Position numbers and translations under genes: made by a program. Source: a virus (Duplodnaviria; Caudoviricetes). Taken from it: a DNA stretch of 64,000 nt. Positions 1 through 64,000 of the stretch are shown in pieces; position 1 is the stretch's first letter; the number at the start of each line of letters is the position of its first letter. Under the pieces are notes generated by a model. That model worked only from the letters and a program-made list of their open reading frames with translations, made no database searches and had not been told where the DNA came from. Location: the IMG/VR virus record IMGVR_UViG_3300043821_000026, positions 32,001-96,000 of that record; one strand, written 5' to 3'.

Positions 1-1
1 A

Positions 2-8320: not shown

Positions 8321-9331
8321 ATGGTAGAAGATTTAACTAATAATGAAAAGAAAATAGATATTAAAATTTTTAAAGACATGAAATCCCGTGTCAACAAATA
8401 TATAGAACAAGGCGGAAAACCAATTGATGAAAGAAGAATTTATTTAGATTATGACACAAAAGCAGAATATGTATTATATTACAAATATAAAAATATGCTT
8501 GTTAGATATAACGCATATGTACAAAAATATAAAAAAGAACCAGAAAGTTTACAAATATCAGTTAATGCTAGAGCTATTGATAGCTTAAGTATTAAAATAC
8601 CTGTAAGTACATTTTTAGATATGAAGGCTAGAGTTGATGCTTATACTGGAAAATTAAATGATACCACTCATGTATATCTTGATATGACAACAATGTATGA
8701 TTATATAAACTATTCAACATATAAATATATGTTATTTAAATACAATGCTTTTATAAAAAAATATGGTAGACAACCTAATTATATAACAACAGCAATAGAA
8801 TCTACACAACCAAATACTACAGTAACAACTAAAAATTGTTATTCAAGTCCTAGATGGTTCTCTGGTACAGAAATGCGCCAAAATACATTGTGGTATTGCG
8901 GAGTAAATATTACACAACAAATATTAAGAGAAATAACAGGTGTATATTATTCAGAATCTGTATTAGCTAAATATTTAGGAACTACTAAAAGTGGTACTGG
9001 TCCAGATATGATTATATCTGTATTAAAGAAAATTTTAACTAATAATGGATATACTGTAAAACGAGCTGAATGGTTATATAAAAGTGATATAAGCTGGGAT
9101 GAAATAGGTAAGGCTATAGAAAACCCTAAAGTAGGATTAGGACTTCATGATTTGTATAGAATGCGCTGGGGCCATTATGAATATCCTGTTAAGCTATGTA
9201 AATCATCAGAAGTCATTACAATAGCAAATAGTTTATCTGGTGGATATTTAGAGGCTAGAAGTTTTTCAACAATGTTAAAATATATAAATGGTCAATCAGG
9301 TAAATCTATTCTAATTGTCGAAGTAGAATAA
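8321..9331 (+). CDS. Endolysin: pseudomurein endoisopeptidase-like (pseudomurein-binding repeats + C39-like cysteine peptidase, PeiR-like)
   Basis: About four N-terminal PMBR-like repeats (FKDMKSRVNKYIEQGGKP; YKYMLFKYNAFIKKYGRQPNYI), a Thr-rich linker, then QNTLWYCG (Cys), WGHY (His) and IANSL. Confidence 0.8.
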   Translation: MVEDLTNNEKKIDIKIFKDMKSRVNKYIEQGGKPIDERRIYLDYDTKAEYVLYYKYKNMLVRYNAYVQKYKKEPESLQISVNARAIDSLSIKIPVSTFLDMKARVDAYTGKLNDTTHVYLDMTTMYDYINYSTYKYMLFKYNAFIKKYGRQPNYITTAIESTQPNTTVTTKNCYSSPRWFSGTEMRQNTLWYCGVNITQQILREITGVYYSESVLAKYLGTTKSGTGPDMIISVLKKILTNNGYTVKRAEWLYKSDISWDEIGKAIENPKVGLGLHDLYRMRWGHYEYPVKLCKSSEVITIANSLSGGYLEARSFSTMLKYINGQSGKSILIVEVE

Positions 9332-43548: not shown

Positions 43549-43622
43549 TCCCCCCTGCCGGACTCGAACCAGCAACATTTCGGTCTACAGCCGAATGCTC
43601 TACCAAATTGAGCTAAGAAGGG
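43549..43622 (-). tRNA. tRNA-Tyr(GTA)
   Basis: Cloverleaf; anticodon arm TTCGG-CTGTAGA-CCGAA; C1:G72 and short variable loop (archaeal type); no CCA. Confidence 0.95.
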
Positions 43623-43625
43623 TTA

Positions 43626-43713
43626 CGCCAGTAACAGGATTTGAACCTGCGATATCGCAATGGATAACAAGATTTCAAGTCTTGCGTCTTTGGCCGAACT
43701 AGACTATACTGGC
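43626..43713 (-). tRNA. tRNA-Ser(TGA)
   Basis: CAAGA-CTTGAAA-TCTTG arm, long variable arm, G73. Confidence 0.95.
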
Positions 43714-43740
43714 CTATATTTGTCAGTCTATAAATGACAA

Positions 43741-43824
43741 CGCTGATAGCAGGATTCGAACCTGCGAGGTTCTATTGAACCATCAGGGTAGCAACCTGAC
43801 GCCTTACCGCTAGACTATACCAGC
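43741..43824 (-). tRNA. tRNA-Ser(GCT)
   Basis: TCAGG-TTGCTAC-CCTGA arm, long variable arm, G73. Confidence 0.95.
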
Positions 43825-43827
43825 AAA

Positions 43828-43899
43828 TAGCTCCATCAGGAGTCGAACCTGAATCTACAGGGCCAAAGCCTATAATGATTGCCATTACACCATAGAGCT
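43828..43899 (-). tRNA. tRNA-Gln(TTG)
   Basis: ATAGG-CTTTGGC-CCTGT arm; A1:U72 (archaeal Gln determinant). Confidence 0.93.
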
Positions 43900-43904
43900 A
43901 TAAT

Positions 43905-44092
43905 TAAGGGTTTTTAATAGGTGGACCCTCATAACCACCTTCTCTTTTAGGTGTGAATTTTTACGAACACCATCAAGATTTTACTCTTGAAATATGCAGA
44001 TTTATCATTGACCACTAGTAAGTCTAAAATCTGTGGGGTATTCTCACCAGCTTAAACTATCTTTCAATTGGATTTGAACCAATATCTCCCCT
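43905..44092 (-). ncRNA. Candidate ncRNA: circularly permuted tRNA-like domain + three hairpins + H-type pseudoknot
   Basis: T-arm precedes D-arm, closed by GGGG/CCCC; 3' pseudoknot AGGTGG/CCACCT and AGGGT/ACCCT; lies between two tRNAs. Confidence 0.65.
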
Positions 44093-44094
44093 AA

Positions 44095-44168
44095 AGGCAT
44101 TAGAGGGAATTGAACCCCCAACCTTAGCTTTACAGGAGCCACGCTCTGCCTAGTTGAGCTATAATGCC
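44095..44168 (-). tRNA. tRNA-Thr(TGT), atypical (C33)
   Basis: GGCATTA/TAATGCC acceptor, TGGCT-CCTGTAA-AGCTA arm, GGTTCAATTCC T-arm. Confidence 0.8.
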
Positions 44169-44273: not shown

Positions 44274-47213
44274 TTAATCATTATGATTGACTCTATCTTT
44301 AAGCTCTTGTTTTTTACCTGCATTCCATTTTTGTGTTACAGTAAAATATCCTGTAATTCTACTCATACTATAAACATTTTCAGAGCCACAATAAATACAA
44401 GAGTCATTATCACCATTTGCTTGTTTACCACATTCTTTGCATACTGTGAAAGCAGAAGTATATGCCCAAAATTGTATATTTTGTTTTTTAATTTTCTTAG
44501 TTAAACTCATAAGAGATTGTGGGTCCATATAAGCCTCACCTAAGAAACAATTAAGGATACAACCTGCTGGTTCATATTTATGATAAGTATTAGCGTTTTT
44601 AATATGTTCAATAATACTTCCTTGAGAATCTACAGGTAAGTGATTACTATTTGTATAATAATATCCACCTTCAACTCCTTTACATAATATATCAGGATAT
44701 ATTTTTTTATCAATTTCTGCAAAACGATGAGAACATGATTCAGCAGGAGAACCTAAACAAGCAAATCTTAATCCATATTTAGCTTTTTGTTTTTTAGAAT
44801 ATTCATTCATAAATTCTAAAATTTCTTCTCCATATTTATTACCTTCAGGAGTATCTAAATCATATCCTGTAAGCATTTTAACAGCTTCATATAATCCACA
44901 AGTACCAAATGTAAATGAAAAGTTACTAATATCATATAATGGTTTACCAGTATATTTATCTTCTTGTAATAAAAACCCTAAATATCCTTCTGTATTAGCT
45001 CTATCTTCAAAGTTTTGTTTTCTATCCAACATAGACATTGTCCCAATATTCATAAAATGTTCAAGATATTGTTTAAATTCATCCATATTATTACTGATAT
45101 AAGCCATTCTTGGAAGATTAAAAGTTATGTAAGCAAAGTTTCCTACATTAAGAGTATCTATTTCCCAATTACCAGTCCAATTAGTTCCGTTAGCAGTTCT
45201 ACAATTTTCACTATGTATACCACCTAATCCACAAACATAATTATGATTATTTTCTATTGTTAAATCATATACATTATCATCATTATTTACAACTTCAATA
45301 TCTTTAATAATAGTATTATTTTTTGGAGAATAATTAATACCGAATGTAACTCTATAATTTGGTTTCCAATTATTTGTTTTACCTTTTCTATTATCAATAT
45401 AAAGAGTGTTTTGTCTTCCTATATATGATAAAGCATATAATACATCGGTTACTAAATTTTTATCAGAACAAGACCAAACATAGTTATTAGATTGTTTATG
45501 AGCATCTAACATTAAACCTTTAATAATATTAGCTATTTTATTTTTATCAGACCAACATTGAGGAAATGTTTTCTCCCCGTTTTTAGTATATAGTTGTACT
45601 AATTTATCTCTTATATTTAATTCTCTAATATTAATAGAGTAAGTACCATTATTTTGTTTAGTAATATCATATTTATAACCTAATTTATCGCATAAATTAG
45701 TAATATATTCTTTTTTCCAATTTAATTTTATATGAAATTCTATAGCATTACTATTTCGCAAAGCTCGTTCATTACTTCGTATATAACCATCAGCTAAAAA
45801 AGCACCTATAAATTCATATTCTAAATCATCAACTGGGATAAATGGTTCGTCAATATAGTTATATAATTCCATACCTACTTTTAAATTTTCAGATTTAATA
45901 ATACCATCTTTAGTTGGTAATTTATGATTATCGGTTACTTTAAAAATATATCCATTATTACAAGTAATCTTAAATACCTTTTCAGAAACTGGTTTTTTAA
46001 TAATATTAATAACTTTATTCCATTCCTTTGTACCATCTTTATTATATGTCATTACATTATCATTTAATTGTAACTCTTGAGGATATTTAAAACCTTTATC
46101 TGTCATAACAGGGGTATCAGAAGTTAATGCCCCCATTACAGTTGTTGCTGTACCGTTTTGAGGAAGGTCTTGATTTATAAAATATGGAGTAGGGAATTTA
46201 GCTATTAATTCATGAATATTTAATAATAATTCATCATATTCTTCACCCATAAATTCATCACGAAGATTAAATAAAGTATTTGGGAAAATATGACATTTAC
46301 CCTTAGCGTCACCTTCATATAAGACTTCTATAAAAGCGTCTATAATCATACGAGCTTCTTTTTTATAGTCATTATATACACCAACTTCACGACCACCGGG
46401 ACCATATGCTGTTAAATCTCGCATAAATGGTGGAACATCTAATTCTAACCCAACAGATGAAAATACTACTTGACCTTTTGATATTAAAGACATATTACAA
46501 TTAAAAATAAAATTTTGAATACATTGTTTTACTTCTTCATATGTTAATCCTTCTGCAAATGGCGCTAAGAATATATTAAAGTATGGATACCCTTGACCTC
46601 CACTAAGAACCGTAGAGCCAGCCATAAAAGCTTGTAAGAGATGATTGAGAAGTACATTTAAGCTTTTAGCTGGTGAAGCACAAGAACAGTTTATACCTTG
46701 ACCATCAATTTTTAAACCATTTTTAATGAAAAATCTGATATCATAGCTAATACAGTTTGCAGGACGAATATTATATGCTTCCATATCATGTATATGAATA
46801 TATCCATCTGTATATGCTTTGCTACATTCTTCGGGCATAGTTAATAGTGCATATTCTTTTAATACAGCATCTGATGCGTATTTAACCACTTGTTCAGGAC
46901 CAAAATTAATATTAGCATTATCTTTATTACCACTATCGATTAAATTTTCTAAAGCAGATACGGATAATCCCAATTTTCTACTTTGTTTTTCTGTATCAAA
47001 TAACCCATCTTTAGTTAAATGATAATTAATCATATCTCTTATTTGTGCTGTGGAGATTTGATTAATTCCATCAATATTATTAACTTTTCTAGCTATTCTA
47101 TTCTTAATATTTTCTGCTTTTTCTTCATCTAAATCAGTTTCATATAATATATGTTCTTTTATTATTTTTGGTTGAAATTTAGATATATCACCTGTACTAT
47201 TTACGACATCCAT
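44274..47213 (-). CDS. nrdD: Anaerobic (class III) ribonucleoside-triphosphate reductase with intein
   Basis: N-terminal ATP cone (MDVVNSTG; start at 47213 preferred to 47288), IHIHD, FPNT, MG-[intein]-CRT, PAES, YYTNS, CxxC zinc site, glycyl-radical SRITGY. Confidence 0.95.
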   Translation of the reverse strand: MDVVNSTGDISKFQPKIIKEHILYETDLDEEKAENIKNRIARKVNNIDGINQISTAQIRDMINYHLTKDGLFDTEKQSRKLGLSVSALENLIDSGNKDNANINFGPEQVVKYASDAVLKEYALLTMPEECSKAYTDGYIHIHDMEAYNIRPANCISYDIRFFIKNGLKIDGQGINCSCASPAKSLNVLLNHLLQAFMAGSTVLSGGQGYPYFNIFLAPFAEGLTYEEVKQCIQNFIFNCNMSLISKGQVVFSSVGLELDVPPFMRDLTAYGPGGREVGVYNDYKKEARMIIDAFIEVLYEGDAKGKCHIFPNTLFNLRDEFMGEEYDELLLNIHELIAKFPTPYFINQDLPQNGTATTVMGALTSDTPVMTDKGFKYPQELQLNDNVMTYNKDGTKEWNKVINIIKKPVSEKVFKITCNNGYIFKVTDNHKLPTKDGIIKSENLKVGMELYNYIDEPFIPVDDLEYEFIGAFLADGYIRSNERALRNSNAIEFHIKLNWKKEYITNLCDKLGYKYDITKQNNGTYSINIRELNIRDKLVQLYTKNGEKTFPQCWSDKNKIANIIKGLMLDAHKQSNNYVWSCSDKNLVTDVLYALSYIGRQNTLYIDNRKGKTNNWKPNYRVTFGINYSPKNNTIIKDIEVVNNDDNVYDLTIENNHNYVCGLGGIHSENCRTANGTNWTGNWEIDTLNVGNFAYITFNLPRMAYISNNMDEFKQYLEHFMNIGTMSMLDRKQNFEDRANTEGYLGFLLQEDKYTGKPLYDISNFSFTFGTCGLYEAVKMLTGYDLDTPEGNKYGEEILEFMNEYSKKQKAKYGLRFACLGSPAESCSHRFAEIDKKIYPDILCKGVEGGYYYTNSNHLPVDSQGSIIEHIKNANTYHKYEPAGCILNCFLGEAYMDPQSLMSLTKKIKKQNIQFWAYTSAFTVCKECGKQANGDNDSCIYCGSENVYSMSRITGYFTVTQKWNAGKKQELKDRVNHND
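45204..46130 (-). mobile_element. Intein (309 aa) with LAGLIDADG homing endonuclease; begins with Ala
   Basis: ALTSDTPV...VTDNHKL (block B)...FIGAFLADG...VYDLTIENNHNY...HSEN/C; removal restores MGCRT. Confidence 0.9.
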
Positions 47214-47323
47214 ATAATCATCTCTTAATTTGTTTAATTTTAAAAAAAATTTTAATAAAATAAGTTTAATTTTATATTTTATTTTCAATTATAATGTATA
47301 TTTTTTAAAGTATATAAAGATTT

Positions 47324-48217: not shown

Positions 48218-48723
48218 TAAATCTCTCCTTTATGTTTATCATCTTGATAATCACCATCATATTTTATATCACAATTATTTAAATCAAAGCTCATCATTTG
48301 AGCAAATCTTTCATTCATTTCGATACAAAAATTATTTTGACTATGATTTATCATCATAAAAGTTAATGTACCATTGTATCCAGCATCACCAACGCAAGTA
48401 CGAACATCTACCCCACATCTTAATAATGTACTACGAGGGAAATATAATTGTACTTGGTCTTTTGGAATATTCATTGGTTCTGATACTTCTGCAATATATA
48501 CTATGTCAGGATATAAAGTATATATTCCATTTTTAGTATTAACGGGTTTATATATTGGTAAGTTTTTATGTCCATTATAAATACCTGTAGGACATCCATC
48601 ATTATCTTCAATAATATATAATTGTCCTAATCTTAAATCTACACCATTTGGTTGTAAAGTTTCACTATCTGTTTCGTAATTATCTTTTAAATATAAATTT
48701 CCATTAATCATATTGTTCACCAT
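48217..48723 (-). CDS. dut: Archaeal-type trimeric dUTPase / dCTP deaminase family
   Basis: QPNGVDLRL, PRSTLLR.G, DAGYNG, ERFAQ, YDGDYQ. Confidence 0.85.
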   Translation of the reverse strand: MVNNMINGNLYLKDNYETDSETLQPNGVDLRLGQLYIIEDNDGCPTGIYNGHKNLPIYKPVNTKNGIYTLYPDIVYIAEVSEPMNIPKDQVQLYFPRSTLLRCGVDVRTCVGDAGYNGTLTFMMINHSQNNFCIEMNERFAQMMSFDLNNCDIKYDGDYQDDKHKGEI

Positions 48724-49378
48724 TTTCTATTTTATAAAATTCTGTATATAAAAATCTTGCAAATTTAACTGCTATCTTTCTTTGTGTCATATATTTAATA
48801 TGTTTCATTGTATAATTCGAATGTTTAAATAAATATTTATCAAAATATTCGTTATACATTTGTTTATATTCAGGGTTGTATTTAATTAACTTTTTAACAA
48901 CTTTTAATATAACTTTATTTAATCTATCATTATATTGAATTTTTGAAGTATCCTGTTTAGGATTACCAATTATTTCACCATATTGTTTATTTTTTTTAGT
49001 AATTTTTTGATATGAATTTCCCATTTTATTGACTGGAGATAATCCACAATAATATATGAATGAATTTTTATTCTTAAATCTATTAATATCTTTAATTAAA
49101 ACAATTAACTCACCTGCATCATAAATAGATATTCCGTCTATATGTTCTAAGCAATCATAGTATTCTGGAATAAATGATATTGTTTGTTTAATTTTTTTAT
49201 ATAATAAATCTAATGGAGCGTCTAACGAATTAATACTAATATTAATTAAAGAATTTCTTGCATCATTTGTTAAACCTATAAAATTATTAATTCTAGATTT
49301 ATTTGATTTTTTAGCTTCAAATAATGTTTTATTAGTATTGATTAAGATATTTAATACTTGTAATTGTGCATCATCCAT
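48704..49378 (-). CDS. IS110-C-terminal/Nop-like domain protein lacking RuvC (TasA-like)
   Basis: Coiled coil then IDGISIYDAGELI..IKDINRF.....F..YCGLSP and Y..Y....HI..M..RKIA.KF; no N-terminal DEDD domain; no IS ends. Confidence 0.7.
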   Translation of the reverse strand: MDDAQLQVLNILINTNKTLFEAKKSNKSRINNFIGLTNDARNSLINISINSLDAPLDLLYKKIKQTISFIPEYYDCLEHIDGISIYDAGELIVLIKDINRFKNKNSFIYYCGLSPVNKMGNSYQKITKKNKQYGEIIGNPKQDTSKIQYNDRLNKVILKVVKKLIKYNPEYKQMYNEYFDKYLFKHSNYTMKHIKYMTQRKIAVKFARFLYTEFYKIENGEQYD

Positions 49379-50019
49379 TATCTCACCTTATTAATTCCAT
49401 TAACAGTTTTTTGTCCTATACCTTTTATATTAAGTAGTTCTTCATCTGTTGCTTGTAATACACCTAATGGTGTTTTAAATTCTTTTAGTAATAATTTAGC
49501 TGTTTTTTTACCAACATAATCAATACCTAAAAGAACTTGAATTTTCGAACTAGCGTCTTTCTTTTGAACAATAGGAGGTTCAATTGGTTCAGTATTTTTA
49601 TTAACAGTATTAATTATACTTTCAATTAACAATGGCATTGATTTTTTTGTTTCACATTGTAATACTGGAACTTTATATCTAACAGATAAAGAAGCTATAT
49701 TACTATAGTATTGTTTTCTAGTAAAATTTTGATATTTATAATTAATATCGTCTAATTTGCCATAAATAATAATATAACAAAAATCATATTTTTCTTTCAT
49801 CCTTAATGCTTGGTCTTGAATGTGTCTACTATTAAAGCTAGACACGAAATCACTTACACTTTTAAGTTCAATCATAATATTAGATAAATCTTGTCTTTTA
49901 ATTAAAACATCACCATCTTCATTATGAGATACGGAGCAAATGCCTGAAAAGTATTCATCAATTATTTTTATTGTACTTGAATCTTCTCTATCATCTATTA
50001 AAATTTTTAAATCATTCAT
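49378..50019 (-). CDS. ERCC4/XPF-family structure-specific nuclease with HhH2
   Basis: IDDRE, GDVLI, IELKSVSDFVSS, IDYVGKKTA and IKGIGQKT HhH motifs. Confidence 0.9.
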   Translation of the reverse strand: MNDLKILIDDREDSSTIKIIDEYFSGICSVSHNEDGDVLIKRQDLSNIMIELKSVSDFVSSFNSRHIQDQALRMKEKYDFCYIIIYGKLDDINYKYQNFTRKQYYSNIASLSVRYKVPVLQCETKKSMPLLIESIINTVNKNTEPIEPPIVQKKDASSKIQVLLGIDYVGKKTAKLLLKEFKTPLGVLQATDEELLNIKGIGQKTVNGINKVR

Positions 50020-50618
50020 TTATAATCATCTTCCGTTATACGATACCAATCATACTTATCATTAACGTATAAGGAATGATAAGCTGTGGCTTCTATAGCT
50101 TTTTTTATTCTATTACTTGGTTTATTTCTTTTAGTAGAATATAATGAACCAAGAGCTAATTCTTTACCGACTCCTATAGCTACATAATCTCCATCAGGTT
50201 CAAATAAACCAAGATTATCTTCAATCTCAAATATATCACCATTATATACTATTAAAAAATTACTATTAGTTTTAATTTGAGTACCATTCATATCTACTAG
50301 TCCTGATAGTTCTAATTCAGTTTTTAAACAATATAGGAAAGAATTAATTAAATATGTTCTAAAATCTGTTCCTTGTATATAATCAGGAGCTTTATAAGAA
50401 TATCTAATAAAATTGAAAATTGAAAATATACCTGAAAAACCGATAATTAAATGTCTTGTATCAATCTTATTTCCATTTTCATCTACCATATTAAATGGTT
50501 TAGAACAAATTTTAGGATTTTTTGATATTTCTATATTATTTCCTGAACTGATTGCACTATCACTACCAATATATACATCACCTGTTTTTTTATATTTAAT
50601 TGCTACAATTACTGTCAT
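50016..50618 (-). CDS. Ntn-hydrolase, proteasome-beta/HslV-like protease
   Basis: N-terminal M-T-VIVAI, GSDS, PKI, GFSG, AIGVG..LALG. Confidence 0.75.
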   Translation of the reverse strand: MTVIVAIKYKKTGDVYIGSDSAISSGNNIEISKNPKICSKPFNMVDENGNKIDTRHLIIGFSGIFSIFNFIRYSYKAPDYIQGTDFRTYLINSFLYCLKTELELSGLVDMNGTQIKTNSNFLIVYNGDIFEIEDNLGLFEPDGDYVAIGVGKELALGSLYSTKRNKPSNRIKKAIEATAYHSLYVNDKYDWYRITEDDYK

Positions 50619-50626
50619 ATTTTACC

Positions 50627-51568
50627 TCATATATATAAATAATTTCCATTACAACTTTCATCACATAATCCTTCTAATTTTAATCTTGCACAACTTGGGA
50701 ATAAAACATCAGTTCTATCATATAAATATTCTATTTGATGTTCTGAATTAACACAATGATTAAATTTATTTTCACTAAGAAATCCTTTCATGATATTATG
50801 AATATCTTCTATTGAGTATCCCATATCCCTCAAGTATGTTATTATATAACCTCTTTCTTGATAGCCAAGATTAGGTTCTAACATCATTTTTGATACACAA
50901 GGTATATAAGCATTACTAAATATGATTTTATTATTTTTATTGATAGGTTGATGTATATTATCAGCTTCAGTATCATATTTTTGTAAATCAAGTTTGTTTA
51001 AATATAATGTAGGGTGAATATTTCGAGGACTTGTTGCTAAACTTTTAATTTCCTGCAAGGTAAGTTTGATTATTTCATCACTAAATAATGGTATACAATA
51101 CCTTCCTGTTTTTAAATTAATTGTATTAGGACAACGACGCACTCTCATTAAGTCACCAATTACAGAATTATCACTTAAAGTATTTGTTTTATGATGAAGT
51201 TCTGTTACGAAGTTTTTAATAGCTTTTTTAGGATTTTTCAATGAAACAGATGTATCAACATCTATTAATATATGAAATCCTCTACCTGAATATAATACAT
51301 TATGTGCTATATTATTATCTCTTAAATATTTAACAACAATTTGGCAATTATTATATGCCACTATATCATCATTATTTATTGGGTCAAAATCTAAAAATAC
51401 ATATTTTACAATTGCATTATACGCTTTTGGGTCTTCGTTAAAATTATAAACTGAAATATATAAATCTTTCCAACCATTATTGTTGTTAATTATAGTATCC
51501 CATTTTGTGTCATCAATTGGTAATGTAATTCTAACGTTTGGTTTTAGAAATATCTGACCAACTATCAC
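50627..51568 (-). CDS. priS: Archaeo-eukaryotic primase, PriS catalytic domain fused to PriL-like C-terminal domain
   Basis: FLDFD, SGRGFH, D..RVRRCPNTIN.KTG; C-terminal PC...ER...FPSC..L...GLC...C. Confidence 0.85.
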   Translation of the reverse strand: MIVGQIFLKPNVRITLPIDDTKWDTIINNNNGWKDLYISVYNFNEDPKAYNAIVKYVFLDFDPINNDDIVAYNNCQIVVKYLRDNNIAHNVLYSGRGFHILIDVDTSVSLKNPKKAIKNFVTELHHKTNTLSDNSVIGDLMRVRRCPNTINLKTGRYCIPLFSDEIIKLTLQEIKSLATSPRNIHPTLYLNKLDLQKYDTEADNIHQPINKNNKIIFSNAYIPCVSKMMLEPNLGYQERGYIITYLRDMGYSIEDIHNIMKGFLSENKFNHCVNSEHQIEYLYDRTDVLFPSCARLKLEGLCDESCNGNYLYI

Positions 51569-51986
51569 TTACATCACCGACATATAGTTCTAATCTTCTA
51601 TCTAAAACTTCATATATTAATCGTCTAATATAATCACATTCTGGTGATAGATATATTCCTCTACCATTCATAATATCAATATATGGCCAATCACGACATT
51701 CTCGCCATCTATCTTTCCATATATCACATACATATAATTTATAATTATCTTCATCATGTTGTAAATGTTCACATTCCATACTTGAACAGCAATTACCACA
51801 TCTAATACAGTAATCTTTTGATTGTATATAATCATAGGTAAATTCAATCGGTGTAGTAACTATAGCTTCTTCAATTATATCTGCTAAAATATCAGTATCT
51901 AAATCTGGAAATTTATTATGATAATAGTCTAATAATTCTTTTAATAATTTAAGATAGTTAGCAAATTTAGAAATTTTTTCTTCCAT
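51531..51986 (-). CDS. YkgJ-family cysteine-cluster (Zn/Fe-chelating) protein
   Basis: CIRCGNCC...CEHL...CDIWKDRWRECRDWP. Confidence 0.75.
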   Translation of the reverse strand: MEEKISKFANYLKLLKELLDYYHNKFPDLDTDILADIIEEAIVTTPIEFTYDYIQSKDYCIRCGNCCSSMECEHLQHDEDNYKLYVCDIWKDRWRECRDWPYIDIMNGRGIYLSPECDYIRRLIYEVLDRRLELYVGDVSDSWSDISKTKR

Positions 51987-52717
51987 TAGAAACCACCTTC
52001 AATACTACATCTAGGTTTATATGGACAATATTTACATAAAAATTGTCTATTGGGTTGAAAATTATTTTCTTTAATTTTATTATTAATAAAATCTAATAAT
52101 TTTAAACTTGCATTTATATCCTCTTGAGTTAATAAAGTACCTTTGTTAATTTCCCCTCTAACTTTTGCAAACCTAAAATTATTATCTCTTGTAAAAAATA
52201 TACCAACATATGAAACTGGTAACTCAAATTCGTCTTCTAATAAAACAACATAATATGAAAGTTCTAATAAATATTTTTTAACTCCACCTGTTTTACCAGT
52301 TTTATAATCTACTACCACTAGCTCCCCATCTTTAATTAATACTAAATCTGCTAAACCTGATAGGTTATATTTTAAATTATGAATATAATATTCTGCTGTA
52401 TATATTCTAAAACCTTCAGCAAAACAATCATATATAAAATCTGCAAAATGTGAAAGATGATTTTTAAATTCACTTGCTCTATCATATTGCATTAAAGCAT
52501 TATTTATATCATCGATTGACATATTTTCTATCTCTTTATTAGAATATTGTTTAACAAATAATTCAAATATTTTATGTATAGCAAGTCCTATATCTAATGC
52601 AGAGCCTTTTTCAGGACTTGGTTGTGGTAAGTTATCTATATTTTCATATTTAAATCGTCTAGGACATTGTAAATATGTATTAACCTTACTTTTTGATAAT
52701 TTCATGTATATCACCAT
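51986..52717 (-). CDS. Cas4-like/RecB-family PD-(D/E)XK exonuclease with Fe-S cysteines
   Basis: LSKSK..YLQCPRRF, GLADLV, DYKTG, CKYCPYKPRC. Confidence 0.85.
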   Translation of the reverse strand: MVIYMKLSKSKVNTYLQCPRRFKYENIDNLPQPSPEKGSALDIGLAIHKIFELFVKQYSNKEIENMSIDDINNALMQYDRASEFKNHLSHFADFIYDCFAEGFRIYTAEYYIHNLKYNLSGLADLVLIKDGELVVVDYKTGKTGGVKKYLLELSYYVVLLEDEFELPVSYVGIFFTRDNNFRFAKVRGEINKGTLLTQEDINASLKLLDFINNKIKENNFQPNRQFLCKYCPYKPRCSIEGGF

Positions 52718-55148
52718 TTAATTTATCATTCTTCTTAACATTGGCGAACGGTTTTTTTGAGAACTTAAATTCAATATAATCAGACGCTACAATATCTTTT
52801 TCTATGTTATTATAAGCATTTGAACAACTCATAATAACAATATTTTTACCATCGTACCCATCAATTCTTAAACAGTCGTTTCCTTTTTTACTTTTAAAGT
52901 ATGTAATTTTTTTTACAACTGCATATTTTGCTTGATGTTCGTTTAAGCTTTTAATTATTGTTATATATGAATTACTAATATATTGGTACTCATTTATAAA
53001 CATTTCTTTATCCATTTCTAAATTAATAAAAAAATGTGCATAAAATTTACCCTTCCATGTATGGCATTTAACAATATATGGGTCACCAACTTTAAGGTTA
53101 TCAATATATCGATTTAATACATTTTGATTTACACTAATAGATATATTATTACCTTTATCTTGAATATGGATAATACTGTATCCTTTTTTGTTATCTATAT
53201 CTATACATATTCCTTTAATATATACTTCATCAACATCAATGTTGGGATTGATATCATCAGTATTTGTTATATATCTATCATATTCGGTTTCATATTTATT
53301 AATCAACTCTTCATGAGGGCTAAATTTTAATACTGCATATTCATATTTTAGCCTATCTTTATCAGACCAATCTTCATCAACTTTATCTTGATTAAATGTG
53401 TTATATATTTCATTTCTGTTCCCAAATCTATCAAATGCACCTGCATATATTAGATTATTAACTACAGATTTATTAACTTTTCTTGGTCGTCTTTTTTGTA
53501 AAAATAAATCAAATGAAAAATAAGGCTGATGTAGTAAAATTTCTTCAATAGCTTTATCTCCAACTTTATCAATAGTTGATAGTCCCATATAAATATTTTT
53601 TCCCATAAATATAGTATCTCTTTGAGATATATTAATATCAGGATTATGTAAAACTAAATCCATATTTTTTATTTCAGATAATATTTTATTCTTTTTTTCA
53701 TCATCTTTTGTATGATTTAAACAAGCTACAGAAAATTCTGCTGGATAATATGTTTTTAAATACCCTGTATAATAACTTATTACTGCATAATTTTTAGCAT
53801 GAGCTTTATTAAAACTATATGAACTAGATTTTTCAATCTTATCCCATATTAATTCTGCTGTTTCTTTAGATACGTTATTATTAAGACAACCATCAATAAA
53901 CTTTGGTTTATATTCAGTAAAAATATAATCTAATTTCTTACCAATACCTTTTCTTATATTATCTGCATCAACATCAGTTAATCCTGCTAATACCATACAT
54001 ATTTTCATTGCTTGTTCTTGATAAACAATTGCACCTTTTGTTTCTTTTAATATAGGCTCTAATCTTGGGTCATCATATTCAATTTCCTCTTCACCAAATT
54101 TTCGTGCAATATATCTATCTGCATCACCAGAATCCTGTGAACCGGGTCTTACTAAAGCTAAAGCCGCAATTAAATCATTAAAGCAATCTGGTTTCATCTT
54201 TTTAATATATGATGATGCTGATGGAGTTTCTAATTGAAATATATTTAATGGATTTTTTAGTATTGTATTATAAACTTTTTTATCTTCATATTCTGTTGGT
54301 AATTTAAAGGTATCATTATTAATTAATTTAATTGTATCTTCAATAATAGATAATGTATTTAATCCTAATGTATCATTTTTTAAAAATTTTAAACTATCAC
54401 ATCTATGACCATCATAGGATACACAATCTACACCATTAACTCTTACTGTTGATGAATAATTCTCTATTGAATCAGGGAATAATAATGTCCCACCTGCGTG
54501 AATACCATATGCCTTTATTAATCCATTAATTTTTTTAAAATTTTGTTCAACTTTTGGATATTTATTAAAGAAATCCTGTACTTTTTTGATTTCGTATATA
54601 TCATCAACAGTCATATCATCAGTTATTAGAGATGTTATTTGATTTACTTCTTTAAATGGTACATTAAATACTCGTGATACATCTTTAATACTAGTTTTAA
54701 TTGTGAATCTTATTAAATTTGGAATACTAAATGCACAATCTCTACCAAATTTATCTTTAATTAAATCTAATGCTTCTTGTCTTCTTGTTTTAGGAATATC
54801 TGTATCTATATCAGGCATTGAGTTTTTAATTCTAGTTTTATTTATAAAACGAGAAAACATTAATCCTTCTTTTAATGGGTCAGTAGAAACTATATTAAGA
54901 CAATAACATAATAAACTACCACCTGCTGAACCTCTACCGGGACCTAAAAACATTCCTTCAGATTTTAAAAGATTGCATATATAAGAAGTGTTTAAAAAAA
55001 AGTCAGATAGATTTGCATCAGTAATAATATCAAGTTCCATTCTTAATCTATCTTCGTATTCTTTACCTGATAAATGTCTTTTCTTAAAGCCTTTTAAAGC
55101 CATTTTTCTTAAATAATCATCATTGTTTATATTAAATGTTTGTTGCAT
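52686..55148 (-). CDS. dnaE: DNA polymerase III alpha-like (family C) catalytic subunit lacking PHP
   Basis: GPGRGSAGGSL, PDIDTD, GIHAGG, KNDTLGL, IFQLE, RPG, YQEQ, YSFNKAHA, PDINIS; ATG at 55148 overlaps PHP stop (TAATG). Confidence 0.95.
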   Translation of the reverse strand: MQQTFNINNDDYLRKMALKGFKKRHLSGKEYEDRLRMELDIITDANLSDFFLNTSYICNLLKSEGMFLGPGRGSAGGSLLCYCLNIVSTDPLKEGLMFSRFINKTRIKNSMPDIDTDIPKTRRQEALDLIKDKFGRDCAFSIPNLIRFTIKTSIKDVSRVFNVPFKEVNQITSLITDDMTVDDIYEIKKVQDFFNKYPKVEQNFKKINGLIKAYGIHAGGTLLFPDSIENYSSTVRVNGVDCVSYDGHRCDSLKFLKNDTLGLNTLSIIEDTIKLINNDTFKLPTEYEDKKVYNTILKNPLNIFQLETPSASSYIKKMKPDCFNDLIAALALVRPGSQDSGDADRYIARKFGEEEIEYDDPRLEPILKETKGAIVYQEQAMKICMVLAGLTDVDADNIRKGIGKKLDYIFTEYKPKFIDGCLNNNVSKETAELIWDKIEKSSSYSFNKAHAKNYAVISYYTGYLKTYYPAEFSVACLNHTKDDEKKNKILSEIKNMDLVLHNPDINISQRDTIFMGKNIYMGLSTIDKVGDKAIEEILLHQPYFSFDLFLQKRRPRKVNKSVVNNLIYAGAFDRFGNRNEIYNTFNQDKVDEDWSDKDRLKYEYAVLKFSPHEELINKYETEYDRYITNTDDINPNIDVDEVYIKGICIDIDNKKGYSIIHIQDKGNNISISVNQNVLNRYIDNLKVGDPYIVKCHTWKGKFYAHFFINLEMDKEMFINEYQYISNSYITIIKSLNEHQAKYAVVKKITYFKSKKGNDCLRIDGYDGKNIVIMSCSNAYNNIEKDIVASDYIEFKFSKKPFANVKKNDKLNGDIHEIIKK

Positions 55149-56053
55149 TAGCACCACCAATCCTCATCAAATAAAGCATCTAATTCTTCGTATCGATTAA
55201 ATTCAGGTATACGAACTTGAGGTTCTTCTAATTGAGCATTACATTTATTTGTAATATCAATTGTATTTTTAAATGATTTCTTTAATATATCCTCATGTTC
55301 AAAGCCACTTTGTTCTGCCCATAATTTTATCCTATCAGGACTTCCTAAAGAATTAGATTCCATTGATTGATAAACATCTTCGATATTTTTATGATATCCA
55401 ATTGCTTCTATAATATTTCTAACATTAGCGTCTTCAGGATTTAAAAAATGTGAATCAGATGTTACTATTGTTGGAATACCTAATTCATCATTTAAAGTTA
55501 CAATACCTTCATTAATTTTTGCTTGAGCTTCAAATTTAGGGTGCATTTGTAATTCAAGATAATAATCTTCACCAAATTTTTCATAAAAATTTTCTGCAAT
55601 TTTATATGCTTTTTGATAATCATCTTTCATTAATGCTTCTCCTATATCACCTAATGCACAAGCAGAAGTGATAACTAATCCATCAGGATTTTTCCATAAT
55701 TCTTCATATGATAATATTGGTTTGTAATAAAAATTATCGTTAGCTATTTTATTTAATTTTCGAATATTATATAATCCTTGTTGATTTTTTGCTAATACTA
55801 TTAAATGTCTTCTATCTTTTGTCTTCTCTCCAGTATATGTAGTTCTACAATAAAATTCACAACCAAATATAGGTTTTATATTTTTTTCTTTAAAAGCATC
55901 ATTAATATCATACCATGCACCAATAGACGCATGGTCTGTTATAGCACAAGCTTGTTGATTAAAATCACTTAATAATGAAGCTAAGTCATTTGGTTTAATT
56001 ATTGCGTCTAATATACTCCATGTTGAATGTAAATGTAAGTTTGTAAAATTCAT
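55148..56053 (-). CDS. dnaE: Stand-alone PHP domain of DnaE (putative proofreading exonuclease)
   Basis: LHLHSTWSILD, AITDH, GCEFY, HLIVLAKN..G..N, TSAC, YLELQ, TSDSH. Confidence 0.92.
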   Translation of the reverse strand: MNFTNLHLHSTWSILDAIIKPNDLASLLSDFNQQACAITDHASIGAWYDINDAFKEKNIKPIFGCEFYCRTTYTGEKTKDRRHLIVLAKNQQGLYNIRKLNKIANDNFYYKPILSYEELWKNPDGLVITSACALGDIGEALMKDDYQKAYKIAENFYEKFGEDYYLELQMHPKFEAQAKINEGIVTLNDELGIPTIVTSDSHFLNPEDANVRNIIEAIGYHKNIEDVYQSMESNSLGSPDRIKLWAEQSGFEHEDILKKSFKNTIDITNKCNAQLEEPQVRIPEFNRYEELDALFDEDWWC

Positions 56054-56251
56054 TTATATACCTTTTAATTGTTTAACTGTAACACCAAATAGTACTGTCG
56101 GTTCAGGTATAATTATACTTATTATATTTTCGTATATATCTAAGCCAACTTCTATACCATAAGAATACCGACGCTCAACTATTGTAGTGTCTACGTTTTT
56201 TATAAATCTTAATTCATCAAATTCTTCATTATATTCGATGTTCCAATTCAT
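56054..56251 (-). CDS. Small hypothetical protein (DUF2283-like)
   Basis: IEYNEEFDELRF...GIEVGLD....IISIII. Confidence 0.45.
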   Translation of the reverse strand: MNWNIEYNEEFDELRFIKNVDTTIVERRYSYGIEVGLDIYENIISIIIPEPTVLFGVTVKQLKGI

Positions 56252-57147
56252 TCATCATCATTCTCACCATCATCTTCGTTGGGGATATTTGAAAAAAGTG
56301 AATTAATTTTACCAGCGTCCCAAACATATTTATTAAGTTTGTTATTAACTGTAGCGAAAACCACTTTCTTTTTTATATTTAAAATATTTGAACGGTCTTT
56401 ATCCATCATTGCAATAAAGTTAATAACATGAGGATTTTTTTCATCTTGTTCTTTGGAATATATTAATCTATGAGAACAGGAACTATGTAGTCTTTGTTTA
56501 ACAGATGCAAATTTTTCATCATCAGGTTGTCTAATGAAATCATCATGTCCAATAAAGAAACAATCAATTGGTAATTGTAAAAATACTTCAGTACATTCAC
56601 GGAAATTTTTAGCTCTAATTTTCCAGAATTGAGTATTTGCACCTGAATCAGGAGCTATATTTTTTTCTTCTCTCATTAAATTTTCACATGATTCAAGTAA
56701 AAAACTAATTCCATCAATGATAATAGCTCTAATTTTCATTCCTTCATCTGATAGTTCAGATATAGCTTGTGCGGCAGACCTAAGATTATCTACAAGACCT
56801 TGATGGTCAATAACTGATACACCTTTTGCATTAACCATTGTTGCATATGGGTTGTAATGTTTTATCATATCTTTTTGATATGAATCAAAATTAAATTCTT
56901 TAATAATTTCTAATGCACTATTATCAATATCAATAACAATGATTTTTTCATCTTCGCTCATATCTTGTAATAACATTGATATAACACTACCAGTTTTGCC
57001 TGTAGAATCTGCTCCTAAACATAATACATTTTTAGGAGTTTTAGGATTCATTACTACATTACTTTGTTCAAATATTTCTTTAATTTCATCTTTCAATGTT
57101 TTTCTTGGTTTTCTTGTTGCTTCTGCTTTCTCTTTAAACATTATCAT
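56248..57147 (-). CDS. P-loop ATPase, AAA_24/Sak4-like recombination protein
   Basis: Walker A GADSTGKT, VIDID, Walker B IIIDG, FIGH. Confidence 0.7.
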   Translation of the reverse strand: MIMFKEKAEATRKPRKTLKDEIKEIFEQSNVVMNPKTPKNVLCLGADSTGKTGSVISMLLQDMSEDEKIIVIDIDNSALEIIKEFNFDSYQKDMIKHYNPYATMVNAKGVSVIDHQGLVDNLRSAAQAISELSDEGMKIRAIIIDGISFLLESCENLMREEKNIAPDSGANTQFWKIRAKNFRECTEVFLQLPIDCFFIGHDDFIRQPDDEKFASVKQRLHSSCSHRLIYSKEQDEKNPHVINFIAMMDKDRSNILNIKKKVVFATVNNKLNKYVWDAGKINSLFSNIPNEDDGENDDE

Positions 57148-57254: not shown

Positions 57255-57503
57255 TTATTCTTGTTGCTCATTATTTTCACCTTCTTTTTTAGGTGGGTTT
57301 AAAAACATTAATCGTTCAAACATATCATTTTGATACTTCCACAATAAATTTTCTGCATATGCATATACCATAGGATGTTTGATATTTTGCATATCAATTC
57401 TTAAAATTTGTATTTTAGAGCGAAGACTTCTTGTCATATTACTCATTATGACAAGAGGGTCTTCAAATTCGCTATCTCCCATTCTAACCAACTGGATTAA
57501 CAA
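57255..57503 (-). CDS. Hypothetical protein
   Basis: ORF packed in operon; start probably MGDSEF. Confidence 0.45.
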   Translation of the reverse strand: MLIQLVRMGDSEFEDPLVIMSNMTRSLRSKIQILRIDMQNIKHPMVYAYAENLLWKYQNDMFERLMFLNPPKKEGENNEQQE

Positions 57504-58485
57504 ATGGTAATATACCTAATAAATTACAGCCAACTTCTCCATCGGATTTAACATAAACTGATAAAATAGCAATTACATCAGCTTCTTCTGAAAATATTGG
57601 TAATGTTTTACGAACTTCAGGACTAATCCAACAGTTAAAATCACTCATATCATTATCTGCTAATCTAATAAATGTTGATTTATTTGGGTCATTACTATTA
57701 CCTTTTTCTAATACAGAGCCTTGCATAATAACACAATTATTTCTTGGTAAATCTCTTTGCTCTGCAAATTCAATTAATTCATCATAATTTTCAACAAACC
57801 ATTCTTTAGGTAATACACTAGATAATTCATCATATACTTCATTCATAGCAGTAAAAGTTAATGGCATTTCGTTATTATCTAATACTGTATAATTATTTAA
57901 TAAAAACATATTGGATTTAAACATCTTATCTTCGTTACCATCTTTTTTACATAACTCAATAGGTTGGAATAATGGAACATTAGTATCTACATTAAAAGGA
58001 GCTAAAAATATACTATGAGGTTCTAATTCATCATTTTTATTCATGAATACACCATAATATTTACCTTTAGCAGTTTCTTCAGGTATAATACCATCATTAA
58101 ATGGGTCGCTTTCATCATAAAGATAATTACCTTCAGAATCTACATAACCTACATTTTGAGCTTCTTCTGTAGTATGGTTTTTAAGATATTCTGTAATTTC
58201 TTGTCTACGTCTAGCAGAAAAATCTTTATTTCTTTCACGTGCAAAAAGATATCCCTTAATACTGTCGCAATCTGATGTTTTTCTTTTTCTTAAAGAACCT
58301 ATAAATCTACGATATACTCTTCTTTCTTTTTCACTATCATCAATATTATCGTCTTTAATATCACTAAAAAGTGCTTGACATCTATTAACAAAGTCGTCTT
58401 CATTTATATTATTATCTTCAGCAACTTTCATTGCTTGTGCTTTTAATTCATCGTTGCTAATAATTTTTATTGGCATATATTTCAC
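57484..58485 (-). CDS. Putative OB-fold ssDNA-binding (RPA-like) protein
   Basis: C-terminal beta pattern VIMQGSV...FIRLAD...CW...VIAI...CNLLGI; adjacent to Sak4-like ATPase. Confidence 0.4.
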   Translation of the reverse strand: MKYMPIKIISNDELKAQAMKVAEDNNINEDDFVNRCQALFSDIKDDNIDDSEKERRVYRRFIGSLRKRKTSDCDSIKGYLFARERNKDFSARRRQEITEYLKNHTTEEAQNVGYVDSEGNYLYDESDPFNDGIIPEETAKGKYYGVFMNKNDELEPHSIFLAPFNVDTNVPLFQPIELCKKDGNEDKMFKSNMFLLNNYTVLDNNEMPLTFTAMNEVYDELSSVLPKEWFVENYDELIEFAEQRDLPRNNCVIMQGSVLEKGNSNDPNKSTFIRLADNDMSDFNCWISPEVRKTLPIFSEEADVIAILSVYVKSDGEVGCNLLGILPFVNPVG

Positions 58486-61221: not shown

Positions 61222-61484
61222 TCTTTAACCTCAAATTTATTAATAAAGTTTTTAGTACCTACAGTTTTGGGTAAGCATGATGAAAATCTATCTAATACGT
61301 ATTTATTTACATATACAGTACCCGGATTGATTAACCATATATATTCTTGATAAAAATCATTACAAAATTCATCAGTAATATTTGTAATATTAGTAAAATC
61401 AAAAGCTACAACAGAAACTTTATTAATACTATCAAAAATTTTACTAACATCTTTATTAATATATTTATCCATTATTAAAAGCAT
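61206..61484 (-). CDS. STAS-like (DUF4325-like) protein
   Basis: VAFDFTNITNITDEFCNDF pattern. Confidence 0.45.
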   Translation of the reverse strand: MLLIMDKYINKDVSKIFDSINKVSVVAFDFTNITNITDEFCNDFYQEYIWLINPGTVYVNKYVLDRFSSCLPKTVGTKNFINKFEVKECIEV

Positions 61485-62161
61485 TATATCAGCTCTCTAC
61501 CTATATGATATCCGATAATTGGAGGTATTGAATCTGCTATTTGCTGATAACTATCTTCAGTTAATTTATAACTAGCAGGAAATCCTTGTAATATACCTGC
61601 CTCTCGTGGTGTAAGTATTCTATCTTCAGTTGGGTGTATGATAATATCTTTTTTTGCGTTACTCATAATTGGAGCAAAGCTATAAGGTTTTAATCTACGA
61701 TAAGCATTAAAGGTTTTATTTTGTAGATTATAATCAGGTATATCAATCCAACAACCACCAGCAGGAACTCTTTTTATTCTTTCGGATACTGATTTAGGCA
61801 TATCTATAATAATATGACCTTGTTTTGTAGCAGTAAATTGTTGATAAAAAGTTAATGGTTCATGATTAATAGCATCTAGACTATCTTTCACAATTGGAGA
61901 TGGATATGAAAAATGATATAGGTCTACTATATTTGATTCCCATGCTAATACTCTATTTTGAGGTATTCCAAAATTTCTAATATTAAAAATTTTATCTCCT
62001 TTAGCATCATGTTTTATATATAAATAAGAATTTTCTGGAAAACCATTAGGTGGCACTTCGTGAAAAATCGACAAGTCTTCGTTTTTATCAACAATTTTAT
62101 GTCCTGCTATTTCAAATCCTATTGATAATTGAGGTGTTAAACAATATTCTTTAATTTTCAT
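61484..62161 (-). CDS. C5 cytosine methyltransferase homologue, apparently catalytically dead
   Basis: LSIGFEIAGHKIV, PPNGF (Cys lost), ENS, FGIPQNR, IHPTEDRILTPREAGILQGFP, QQIADSIPP; start at 62161 after AGGTG. Confidence 0.75.
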   Translation of the reverse strand: MKIKEYCLTPQLSIGFEIAGHKIVDKNEDLSIFHEVPPNGFPENSYLYIKHDAKGDKIFNIRNFGIPQNRVLAWESNIVDLYHFSYPSPIVKDSLDAINHEPLTFYQQFTATKQGHIIIDMPKSVSERIKRVPAGGCWIDIPDYNLQNKTFNAYRRLKPYSFAPIMSNAKKDIIIHPTEDRILTPREAGILQGFPASYKLTEDSYQQIADSIPPIIGYHIGRELI

Positions 62162-62378
62162 ATTGAACACCTTCATGAACTTGTAATGAATAAAAATAAA
62201 ATAATCTAAACCATTCATCCTCATAATCTAATCGAAAAAGTGATGGATAAGTCATCATTAAATATCCATAACCCCATTGATTATTAATTTCTGTATAATC
62301 TTTTGTCATAATTAATGGGTATGTGTGACGCTTATTACCATATTCAGAATCAATTACCCTAGTATCCAAAATTCTCAT
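62151..62378 (-). CDS. Hypothetical protein
   Basis: 75-aa ORF overlapping neighbours. Confidence 0.45.
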   Translation of the reverse strand: MRILDTRVIDSEYGNKRHTYPLIMTKDYTEINNQWGYGYLMMTYPSLFRLDYEDEWFRLFYFYSLQVHEGVQYEN

Positions 62379-63667: not shown

Positions 63668-64000
63668 ATGAATGGAATCTATGCTTGGAAAAATATACAA
63701 AACGGTAAAATGTATATTGGACAAACTAAGTATATTGTAGATAGACCTTATGACCATTTTAAATGTTCTACAAGTCATGGTCAAAAATTTGAGAACGCAA
63801 TAAAAAAATATGGAAAAAAAAGTTTTAAATTAATAATTTTAGATAAAAATGTATCAAATTTAAACATTATGGAAAAGCATTATATAAGAGTATATAGCTC
63901 TTATATTAATGGATATAATTCAACATTAGGAGGAAATGGTATATATCCTGATATTATTGAGTGTCCTCATAATATATTATGGAATTGTCGTTATACCCAT
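63668..64000 (+). CDS. GIY-YIG homing endonuclease (3'-partial), not in ORF track
   Basis: MNGIYAWKNIQNGKMYIGQT...R...H...E..YI...GYN...GG; open to the window end. Confidence 0.9.
   Translation, partial: MNGIYAWKNIQNGKMYIGQTKYIVDRPYDHFKCSTSHGQKFENAIKKYGKKSFKLIILDKNVSNLNIMEKHYIRVYSSYINGYNSTLGGNGIYPDIIECPHNILWNCRYTH

Follow-up and report, generated by a model that had tools for sequence, protein, structure and literature searches.

A probable family-C (DnaE-type) replicase encoded as two polypeptides in a PhiF1-like virus of pseudomurein-walled methanogens

Family C is the replicase of bacteria, whereas cellular archaea rely on polymerases of families B and D. What, then, is a DnaE enzyme, divided between two adjacent genes, doing in what looks like an archaeal virus? 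We addressed this question for a 64,000-nt stretch of the IMG/VR record IMGVR_UViG_3300043821_000026 (hereafter the window), which comprises bases 32001-96000 of a linear, 138,502-bp record with an estimated completeness of 95% and a GC content of 27%. An earlier reading of the letters, made without database searches (the sequence-only reading), had described the two genes as a genuinely split DnaE in an apparently archaeal virus. Our analysis makes it very likely that a family-C (DnaE-type) replicase is encoded here as two polypeptides, in a PhiF1-like virus of pseudomurein-walled methanogens.

Open reading frames (ORFs) and Pfam matches both confirmed that the DnaE motifs lie in one gene and the PHP domain in the gene upstream of it, on the minus strand (Table 1). 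The upstream gene encodes a 301-aa protein with a PHP match (E = 2.7e-33), and the downstream gene an 820-aa DnaE core composed of palm, fingers, HhH domain and a C-terminal part. On the product of 52686-55160 (-), the models DNA_pol3_alpha (4.5e-57), DNA_pol3_finger (PF17657, 7.6e-44) and HHH_6 (PF14579, 3.2e-17) were matched, and an OB fold after the HhH domain was indicated by a weak tRNA_anti-codon match (5.6e-4; 20.2 bits, below the Pfam cut-off of 27). Measured against phrog_405, a profile of full-length phage DnaE, the PHP protein spans positions 42-339 and the core 336-1143 (core E = 1.4e-190). Relative to this profile the two halves abut, and no stretch is missing or duplicated. PolB and PolA gave no match in the 138.5-kb record, in which the split DnaE is the only recognisable DNA polymerase.

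Direct reading of the junction also upheld the TAATG overlap and the GGTGG ribosome-binding site that had been proposed. The PHP gene ends in GAT TGG TGG TGC TAA, the final A of which is the first base of the core ATG (TAATG), and a GGTGGTG sequence sits 3-9 nt 5′ of this ATG. GGTG-type motifs precede 21% of the genes in the virus genome, compared with a background of 2.5%, and because of this enrichment the GGTGGTG at the junction fits the ribosome-binding sites of the genome. Given the one-base overlap behind a Shine–Dalgarno-like motif, the PHP and core genes are probably translationally coupled.

Is the break a property of the enzyme or of the assembly? We searched 5.8 billion proteins for relatives of the core. 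More than 100 clusters (at 90% identity) were recovered at 42-48% identity, none of which contains a PHP domain; all but three are 794-820 aa long, and the three longer ones (1,226-1,229 aa) contain an intein. A separate PHP gene of ∼300 aa was found directly upstream of the core in five of the five relatives whose context was read (L003, L004, L015, L179 and L181), and the seven 50%-identity clusters closest to the PHP protein contain only free-standing proteins, 282-318 aa long. The DnaE domains are hence spread over two genes in the relatives as they are here, rather than joined on a single polypeptide, and further lineages with PHP-less cores exist in IMG/VR.

A similar picture could arise if the functional form were one fused protein and the break came from an artefact of assembly or sequencing, or from a pseudogenising frameshift of recent date; at their short overlap the frames are offset by one base, which a single indel could bring about. 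Yet the junction GGTGGTGCTAATG is identical in contigs from three different sequencing runs (including L179 and L181), whose flanks differ and which show 100, 95 and 77% protein identity. A split is also seen in every relative at 42-48% identity and in PhiF1, with differing junction layouts, ∼19 junction residues of the PHP protein are absent from fused enzymes, and all catalytic residues are kept in both halves. We consider the artefact or frameshift explanation effectively refuted and assign it next to no probability.

The PHP and core genes do not stand in the same frame relation in all relatives: in L003 they are in-frame with one TAA between them, whereas in the window virus they lie in different frames. 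No device for read-through or frameshifting is therefore conserved, and the locus yields two polypeptides; programmed recoding was rejected as a candidate on account of these differing frame relations. A polymerase joined by a split intein, as in cyanobacterial DnaE, was likewise rejected, as Hint/intein halves flanking the break were not found. Pfam searches gave no Hint/intein match in either the PHP protein or the core, and the same searches detect inteins in NrdD and PhiF1 ORF57. The proposal of a genuine DnaE split that is neither a frameshift nor a split intein is thus borne out by its conservation in relatives, by the identical junctions and by the lack of a Hint match.

We then turned to the virus itself. 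A tblastn comparison of all ORFs of the record with Methanobacterium virus PhiF1 returned ∼30 matches in the same order, including the capsid, tail sheath (E = 1e-72), tube (45% identity), tape measure, baseplate J, large terminase (1e-88), portal (3e-85) and the whole replication module. The window also encodes a protein with pseudomurein-binding repeats (PMBR; Table 1). These repeats occur in PhiF1 and in the closest IMG/VR relative (L095, 154.7 kb) as well, and exceeded the cut-off in none of 14 control genomes; a Pfam search for the Pei peptidase C71 domain gave no match. Because the virus is collinear with PhiF1 and carries pseudomurein-binding repeats, we regard it as archaeal, in support of the earlier supposition, and by these sequence criteria its host very probably belongs to the Methanobacteriales. 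The low GC content hints at a Methanobrevibacter- or Methanosphaera-like host. A chimeric contig is unlikely because the structural and the replication block are both PhiF1-like. The split DnaE would accordingly be placed as the replicase of a 138.5-kb, 27% GC, PhiF1-like contractile-tailed virus of pseudomurein-walled methanogens.

PhiF1 (GenBank MK994522, 2019; host Methanothermobacter thermautotrophicus) also provides the closest documented parallel to the split itself. Its ORF58 combines a uracil-DNA glycosylase (UDG) domain with PHP in 447 aa, its ORF57 is a core with a Hint insert, and GenBank labels both as 'putative DNA polymerase III DnaE superfamily protein'. Both viruses have DnaE cut at the PHP-palm linker, with the PHP gene upstream and the core gene downstream, and in both viruses a PD-(D/E)XK nuclease, a primase-like protein and XPF follow the polymerase in the same order; structural genes are held in common, and both viruses encode PMBR repeats. 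The two nevertheless differ considerably. Identity is only 31-34%, the PHP protein of PhiF1 has an N-terminal family-4 UDG domain and its core an intein, neither of which is present in the window virus, the Transposase_20-like and HslV-like genes have exchanged places, and PhiF1 has its dCTP deaminase-like gene in another part of the genome. Moreover, PhiF1 measures 74 kb compared with 138.5 kb here, and the window virus has 27% GC and giant adhesin-like genes. The insert in PhiF1 ORF57 (L001 10654-14184) is a Hint/intein element of ∼350 aa inside the palm domain. The annotated start of this ORF overlaps ORF58 by 80 nt, its first residues align to nothing, and it is probably placed too far upstream.

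In an IQ-TREE phylogeny, the window virus, eight relatives and PhiF1 formed one clade (Shimodaira–Hasegawa-like approximate likelihood-ratio test (SH-aLRT) 98) outside the cellular DnaE clade (95). The tree places the window virus with PhiF1, and its deep branches, at 65, are weak. A second split form, that of the Rhodococcus phage Peregrin (MH153807, Weaselvirus), consists of a 303-aa PHP protein and a 959-aa core encoded by the overlapping adjacent genes gp99 and gp100, both annotated as DNA polymerase III alpha. Peregrin, however, is an actinobacterial phage, its replisome uses a DnaB-like helicase, and the phage encodes RecA and RuvC as well. Its split is independent, because it nests among fused actinophage enzymes (100), such as that of Streptomyces phage Pepperwood (gp80), and because it is cut ∼25 residues earlier. 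Among fully fused enzymes, the nearest to the PHP protein is a viral UDG-PHP-core DnaE of 1,271 aa (cluster P0133, 37% identity), which has the same core domains but is one polypeptide with an N-terminal UDG; UDG gave no match in the 138.5-kb record. These comparisons suggest an order in which a fused enzyme gave rise to a UDG-PHP gene followed by a core gene (as in PhiF1) and then, with loss of UDG, to the PHP and core genes of the window virus. On the same sequence evidence, the split would be old, being common to PhiF1, and would have arisen independently of that in actinobacteriophages.

Several points weigh against the overall reading of a two-part replicase in a methanogen virus. The deeper branches of the tree are weak, as noted, and its root is arbitrary. 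The record is linear and ∼95% complete, so that a clamp or a second polymerase could lie in the missing sequence or in unannotated small ORFs. Enzyme activity, subunit association and expression are all predicted. The host, too, is a prediction, and the core protein gave no match when scanned against a set holding one genome for each prokaryote species, so that no archaeal genome of this set has a close copy. With the core alignment, the same scan returned only bacterial fused DnaE and one 71.5-kb viral contig (L015, CAVFGN010000005.1), the sole close match, in a metagenome-assembled genome (MAG) assigned to 'Alistipes finegoldii'.

This last match bears on whether the virus could instead be a bacteriophage of a low-GC gut bacterium, whose DnaE would then be unremarkable. 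The only close match among species representatives comes from the Alistipes finegoldii MAG, in whose bin no PMBR match was found, and DnaE is otherwise known from bacteria and their phages (PMC3201878). We nonetheless consider a bacteriophage very unlikely. About 30 collinear genes are common to the window virus and PhiF1, a cultured virus of Methanothermobacter, PMBR scores above the cut-off in this virus, L095 and PhiF1 whereas all 14 control genomes stay below it, the XPF is of archaeal type and the primase has a PriL-like end. Furthermore, the DnaE of L015 is also split and belongs to the same virus clade, which is why we read this contig as mis-binned; its presence in the Alistipes MAG is probably a binning error, and binning alone shows no host.

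Returning to the enzyme of the presumed methanogen virus, we asked whether its two halves retain the residues that family C requires. The PHP ligands H7, H9, D16, H41, E66, H83, C132, D200 and H202 were aligned to the PHP domains of Thermus aquaticus and E. coli Pol III alpha and correspond to the Thermus residues, and all nine are invariant in 16 diverse relatives, so that the metal site read from the sequence at the outset (HxH, D, H, E, H, C, DxH) is intact. The palm aspartates D113 and D115 (PDIDTD) and D259 are similarly invariant in 16 cores. Indeed, the nine PHP ligands, the palm Asp triad, the fingers and the HhH domain are all features in common with T. aquaticus Pol III alpha (PDB 2HPI) and Mycobacterium tuberculosis DnaE1 (PDB 5LEW), although the bacterial enzymes are single polypeptides of 1,180-1,220 aa that work with the beta clamp and tau.

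In the DnaE1 of Thermus and Mycobacterium, the PHP domain is a 3′-5′ proofreading exonuclease, and by analogy the free PHP protein is most likely a proofreading 3′-5′ exonuclease too. In E. coli Pol III alpha, by contrast, the PHP domain has no catalytic activity and its role is to hold the epsilon subunit. The E. coli case speaks for the alternative in which the free PHP protein has a structural or stabilising function, or acts as a pyrophosphatase, with fidelity coming from elsewhere. E. coli has, however, lost several of the ligands, as is evident from an alignment of the wild type with the engineered 4JOM sequence, whereas all nine are invariant across the 16 members examined here, and no DnaQ-like exonuclease was found in the 138.5-kb record. 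We therefore regard a non-proofreading role as rather unlikely.

How might the proofreader and the core come together? We modelled the PHP protein with core residues 1-620 and obtained an interaction prediction score from aligned errors (ipSAE) of 0.88, compared with 0.00 for the best of three controls. Of 80 solved complexes used in calibration, 58 reached the mark applied, as did 2 of 110 mismatched pairs; these counts are only a rough guide here (custom alignments). At least 92% of the contacts agreed over three runs, with a partner predicted local distance difference test (pLDDT) score of at least 91. This pass may reflect memory of solved full-length DnaE structures, and it is a sign of likeness rather than of binding. 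Near the C-terminus of the PHP protein lies an extra helix, YEELDALF followed by DEDWWC, for which the gut-clade consensus is [HY]xx[LFM]xx[LIFMVK]F. In the model, YEELDALF packs on core residues 49-59, with contacts of L291 and L294 at low expected error. The PHP protein and core would thus rejoin through the normal PHP-palm interface, aided by this short additional C-terminal helix.

The presence of a bacterial-type polymerase raised the question of which clamp it uses, and the rest of the genome had been proposed as the place to look for PCNA or a beta clamp. Neither was found in the record. The Pfam models PCNA_N (PF00705) and beta-clamp N (PF00712) gave no match over the whole 138.5 kb, and no clamp appeared in Pfam or PHROGs scans of 40 further ORFs (∼140-670 aa; 10 through both libraries). 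In a regular-expression scan, no replication protein carried a terminal PCNA-interacting peptide (PIP) box, none was seen on inspecting the termini of the XPF nuclease for a C-terminal one, and the core contains no conserved QL[SD]LF-like or PIP motif. Compared with bacterial DnaE (E. coli sequence), the core has a shortened internal clamp-binding segment in which no QL[SD]LF-like motif occurs, and what follows the OB fold bears no relation to the bacterial enzyme. Because neither a clamp nor a clamp-binding motif is recognisable, replication is probably clamp-independent or uses an unrecognised factor. Kazlauskas and Venclovas reported a clamp homologue in only one phage genome among those carrying a C-family polymerase (PMC3201878), and from its rarity in those phages clamp-independent synthesis would be a reasonable default.

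If the PHP C-terminal helix were a degenerate PIP, the polymerase might ride the archaeal clamp of the host: its spacing is PIP-like, the motif is conserved in the PHP-only gut clade and a viral clamp was not found. The canonical Gln is missing, though, and in the model L291 and L294 pack, with low expected error, against the core residues named above. The motif is also lacking in UDG-PHP forms and in PhiF1, and the extreme PHP tail is unconserved, which together make a PIP function of the helix unlikely. We find it similarly improbable that a two-subunit family-C polymerase without beta-clamp and tau contacts is the sole replicase in an archaeal cell, either clamp-free or with the PHP helix as a degenerate PIP for host PCNA. 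Were the helix to act as a PIP, this would be a case of a bacterial replicase re-equipped for an archaeal clamp, in a large and uncultured lineage of viruses of gut methanogens.

Setting the clamp aside, the split DnaE lies within a module of replication genes (Table 1). The sequence-only reading had envisaged a hybrid replisome of DnaE, an archaeal PriS-PriL primase, XPF, a Sak4-like ATPase and an RPA-like protein, and these components fared unequally. XPF was well supported by its ERCC4 and HhH2 domains and by its match to the Aeropyrum pernix protein. The Sak4-like assignment is marginal (AAA_24 at 28.4 bits against a cut-off of 27), and the PriL signal of the primase candidate is weak, with DNA_primase_lrg at 5.9e-4, below the Pfam cut-off, and S. 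solfataricus PriL at 1.2e-3. The RPA-like protein could not be confirmed: the 333-aa product concerned has three homologues only, was SSB/RPA-like only as a weak Atlas lead (0.75), and its AlphaFold model was unusable (pLDDT 46). The replication module additionally contains a dCTP deaminase-like protein (dUTPase fold), and a D5-like superfamily 3 helicase of 667 aa is encoded outside the window, at 103070-105073 of the genome. As we picture it, the DnaE module would comprise the Sak4-like ATPase, the PD-(D/E)XK nuclease, the primase with the PriL-like end, XPF, the dCTP deaminase-like protein and NrdD. The Transposase_20-like and HslV-like genes are kept in PhiF1 (ORF53 and ORF52) and, because of this conservation, are lineage-typical rather than chance insertions.

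Table 1. Features of the split DnaE locus, its replication module and the host marker (window positions)
Feature	Position	Strand	Evidence
PHP subunit gene, 301 aa; putative metal-dependent 3′-5′ proofreading exonuclease of split DnaE	55148..56053	-	Pfam PHP, metal ligands
DnaE catalytic subunit gene, 820 aa: palm/thumb, fingers, HhH, OB-like, further C-terminal domain	52686..55148	-	Pfam, phrog_405, aspartates
Junction of the two genes	55146..55158	-	GGTGGTG (Shine–Dalgarno-like) 55158-55152; PHP-gene TAA 55150-55148; core-gene ATG 55148-55146
Conserved 333-aa protein, PhiF1 ORF61 homologue	57484..58485	-	no Pfam, PHROG or PDB match
Sak4-like / AAA_24 ATPase, PhiF1 ORF60 homologue	56248..57147	-	Pfam AAA_24 1.7e-6; PHROG Sak4-like 1.7e-7; 32% identity to PhiF1
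PD-(D/E)XK / Cas4-like nuclease, PhiF1 ORF56 homologue	51986..52717	-	Pfam PDDEXK_1 1.7e-26; 31% identity to PhiF1
Primase candidate with PriL C-terminal-domain-like end, PhiF1 ORF55 homologue	50627..51568	-	phrog_16345 'primase' 5e-12; 39% identity to PhiF1
Short archaeal-type XPF nuclease, ERCC4 + HhH2	49378..50019	-	Pfam; best solved-structure match Aeropyrum pernix XPF, E 9e-12
Transposase_20 (IS110 C-terminal)-like protein and HslV-like peptidase	48704-49378 and 50016-50618	-	within replication module
Anaerobic ribonucleotide reductase NrdD, 1,004 aa, intein-interrupted	44274..47288	-	NRDD 2e-129; Intein_splicing 6.6e-10; PhiF1-collinear module
Pseudomurein-binding-repeat protein, marker for Methanobacteriales/Methanopyrales hosts	8321..9331	+	Pfam PMBR 45.8 bits, cut-off 24.9

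The remainder of the window contains further features of this virus. The intein of NrdD includes a LAGLIDADG-like region, and PhiF1 NrdD (597 aa as annotated) is not so extended. Free-standing genes resembling GIY-YIG and HNH homing endonucleases lie at 63668-64000 (+) of the window and at L010 5723-6199 (-); together with the inteins, these homing-endonuclease-like genes indicate heavy selfish-element traffic in the lineage. An IS605-type TnpB with Cas12f1-like TNB, OrfB_IS605 and HTH domains was located at 17087-18226 (+), among tail-fibre/adhesin genes. Three giant plus-strand ORFs encode 3,778 aa (1-6907, starting before the window), 2,924 aa (25978-34752) and 1,655 aa (35322-40289); they adjoin several proteins with Big_3_5, Chlam_PMP and beta-helix domains, an arrangement reminiscent of adhesin-like proteins in gut methanogens. 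Between the structural and replication blocks, at 43549-44168 (-), are five tRNA genes (Tyr-GTA, Ser-TGA, Ser-GCT, Gln-TTG and Thr-TGT). Finally, the ORF at 61484-62224 (-) aligns with the C-5 cytosine DNA methylase model over no more than the C-terminal half of that model (140-322 of 324), and may be a methyltransferase that has been truncated or split.

That a methanogen virus has a two-gene DnaE is not new, a point that the sequence-only reading missed, as the layout is already documented in the GenBank record of PhiF1; it is of a known but little discussed kind, and the value of the present locus is limited because PhiF1 already documents the arrangement. A survey from 2011 listed family-C polymerases in bacteriophages only (PMC3201878), and in the open full-text literature, whose coverage does not extend to Medvedeva et al. 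2023 (Nat Microbiol), we found no discussion of DnaE in methanogen viruses. The lineage takes in more than 100 protein clusters at 90% identity and contigs of 100-165 kb. Replication by a DnaE-type enzyme throughout a lineage of methanogen viruses would mean that polymerase family is not tied to host domain. A natural two-piece DnaE would also offer a system for studying how the PHP proofreader and the polymerase core cooperate, and the lineage lets one ask what replaces the beta clamp and how a bacterial-type polymerase works with a primase of archaeo-eukaryotic type.

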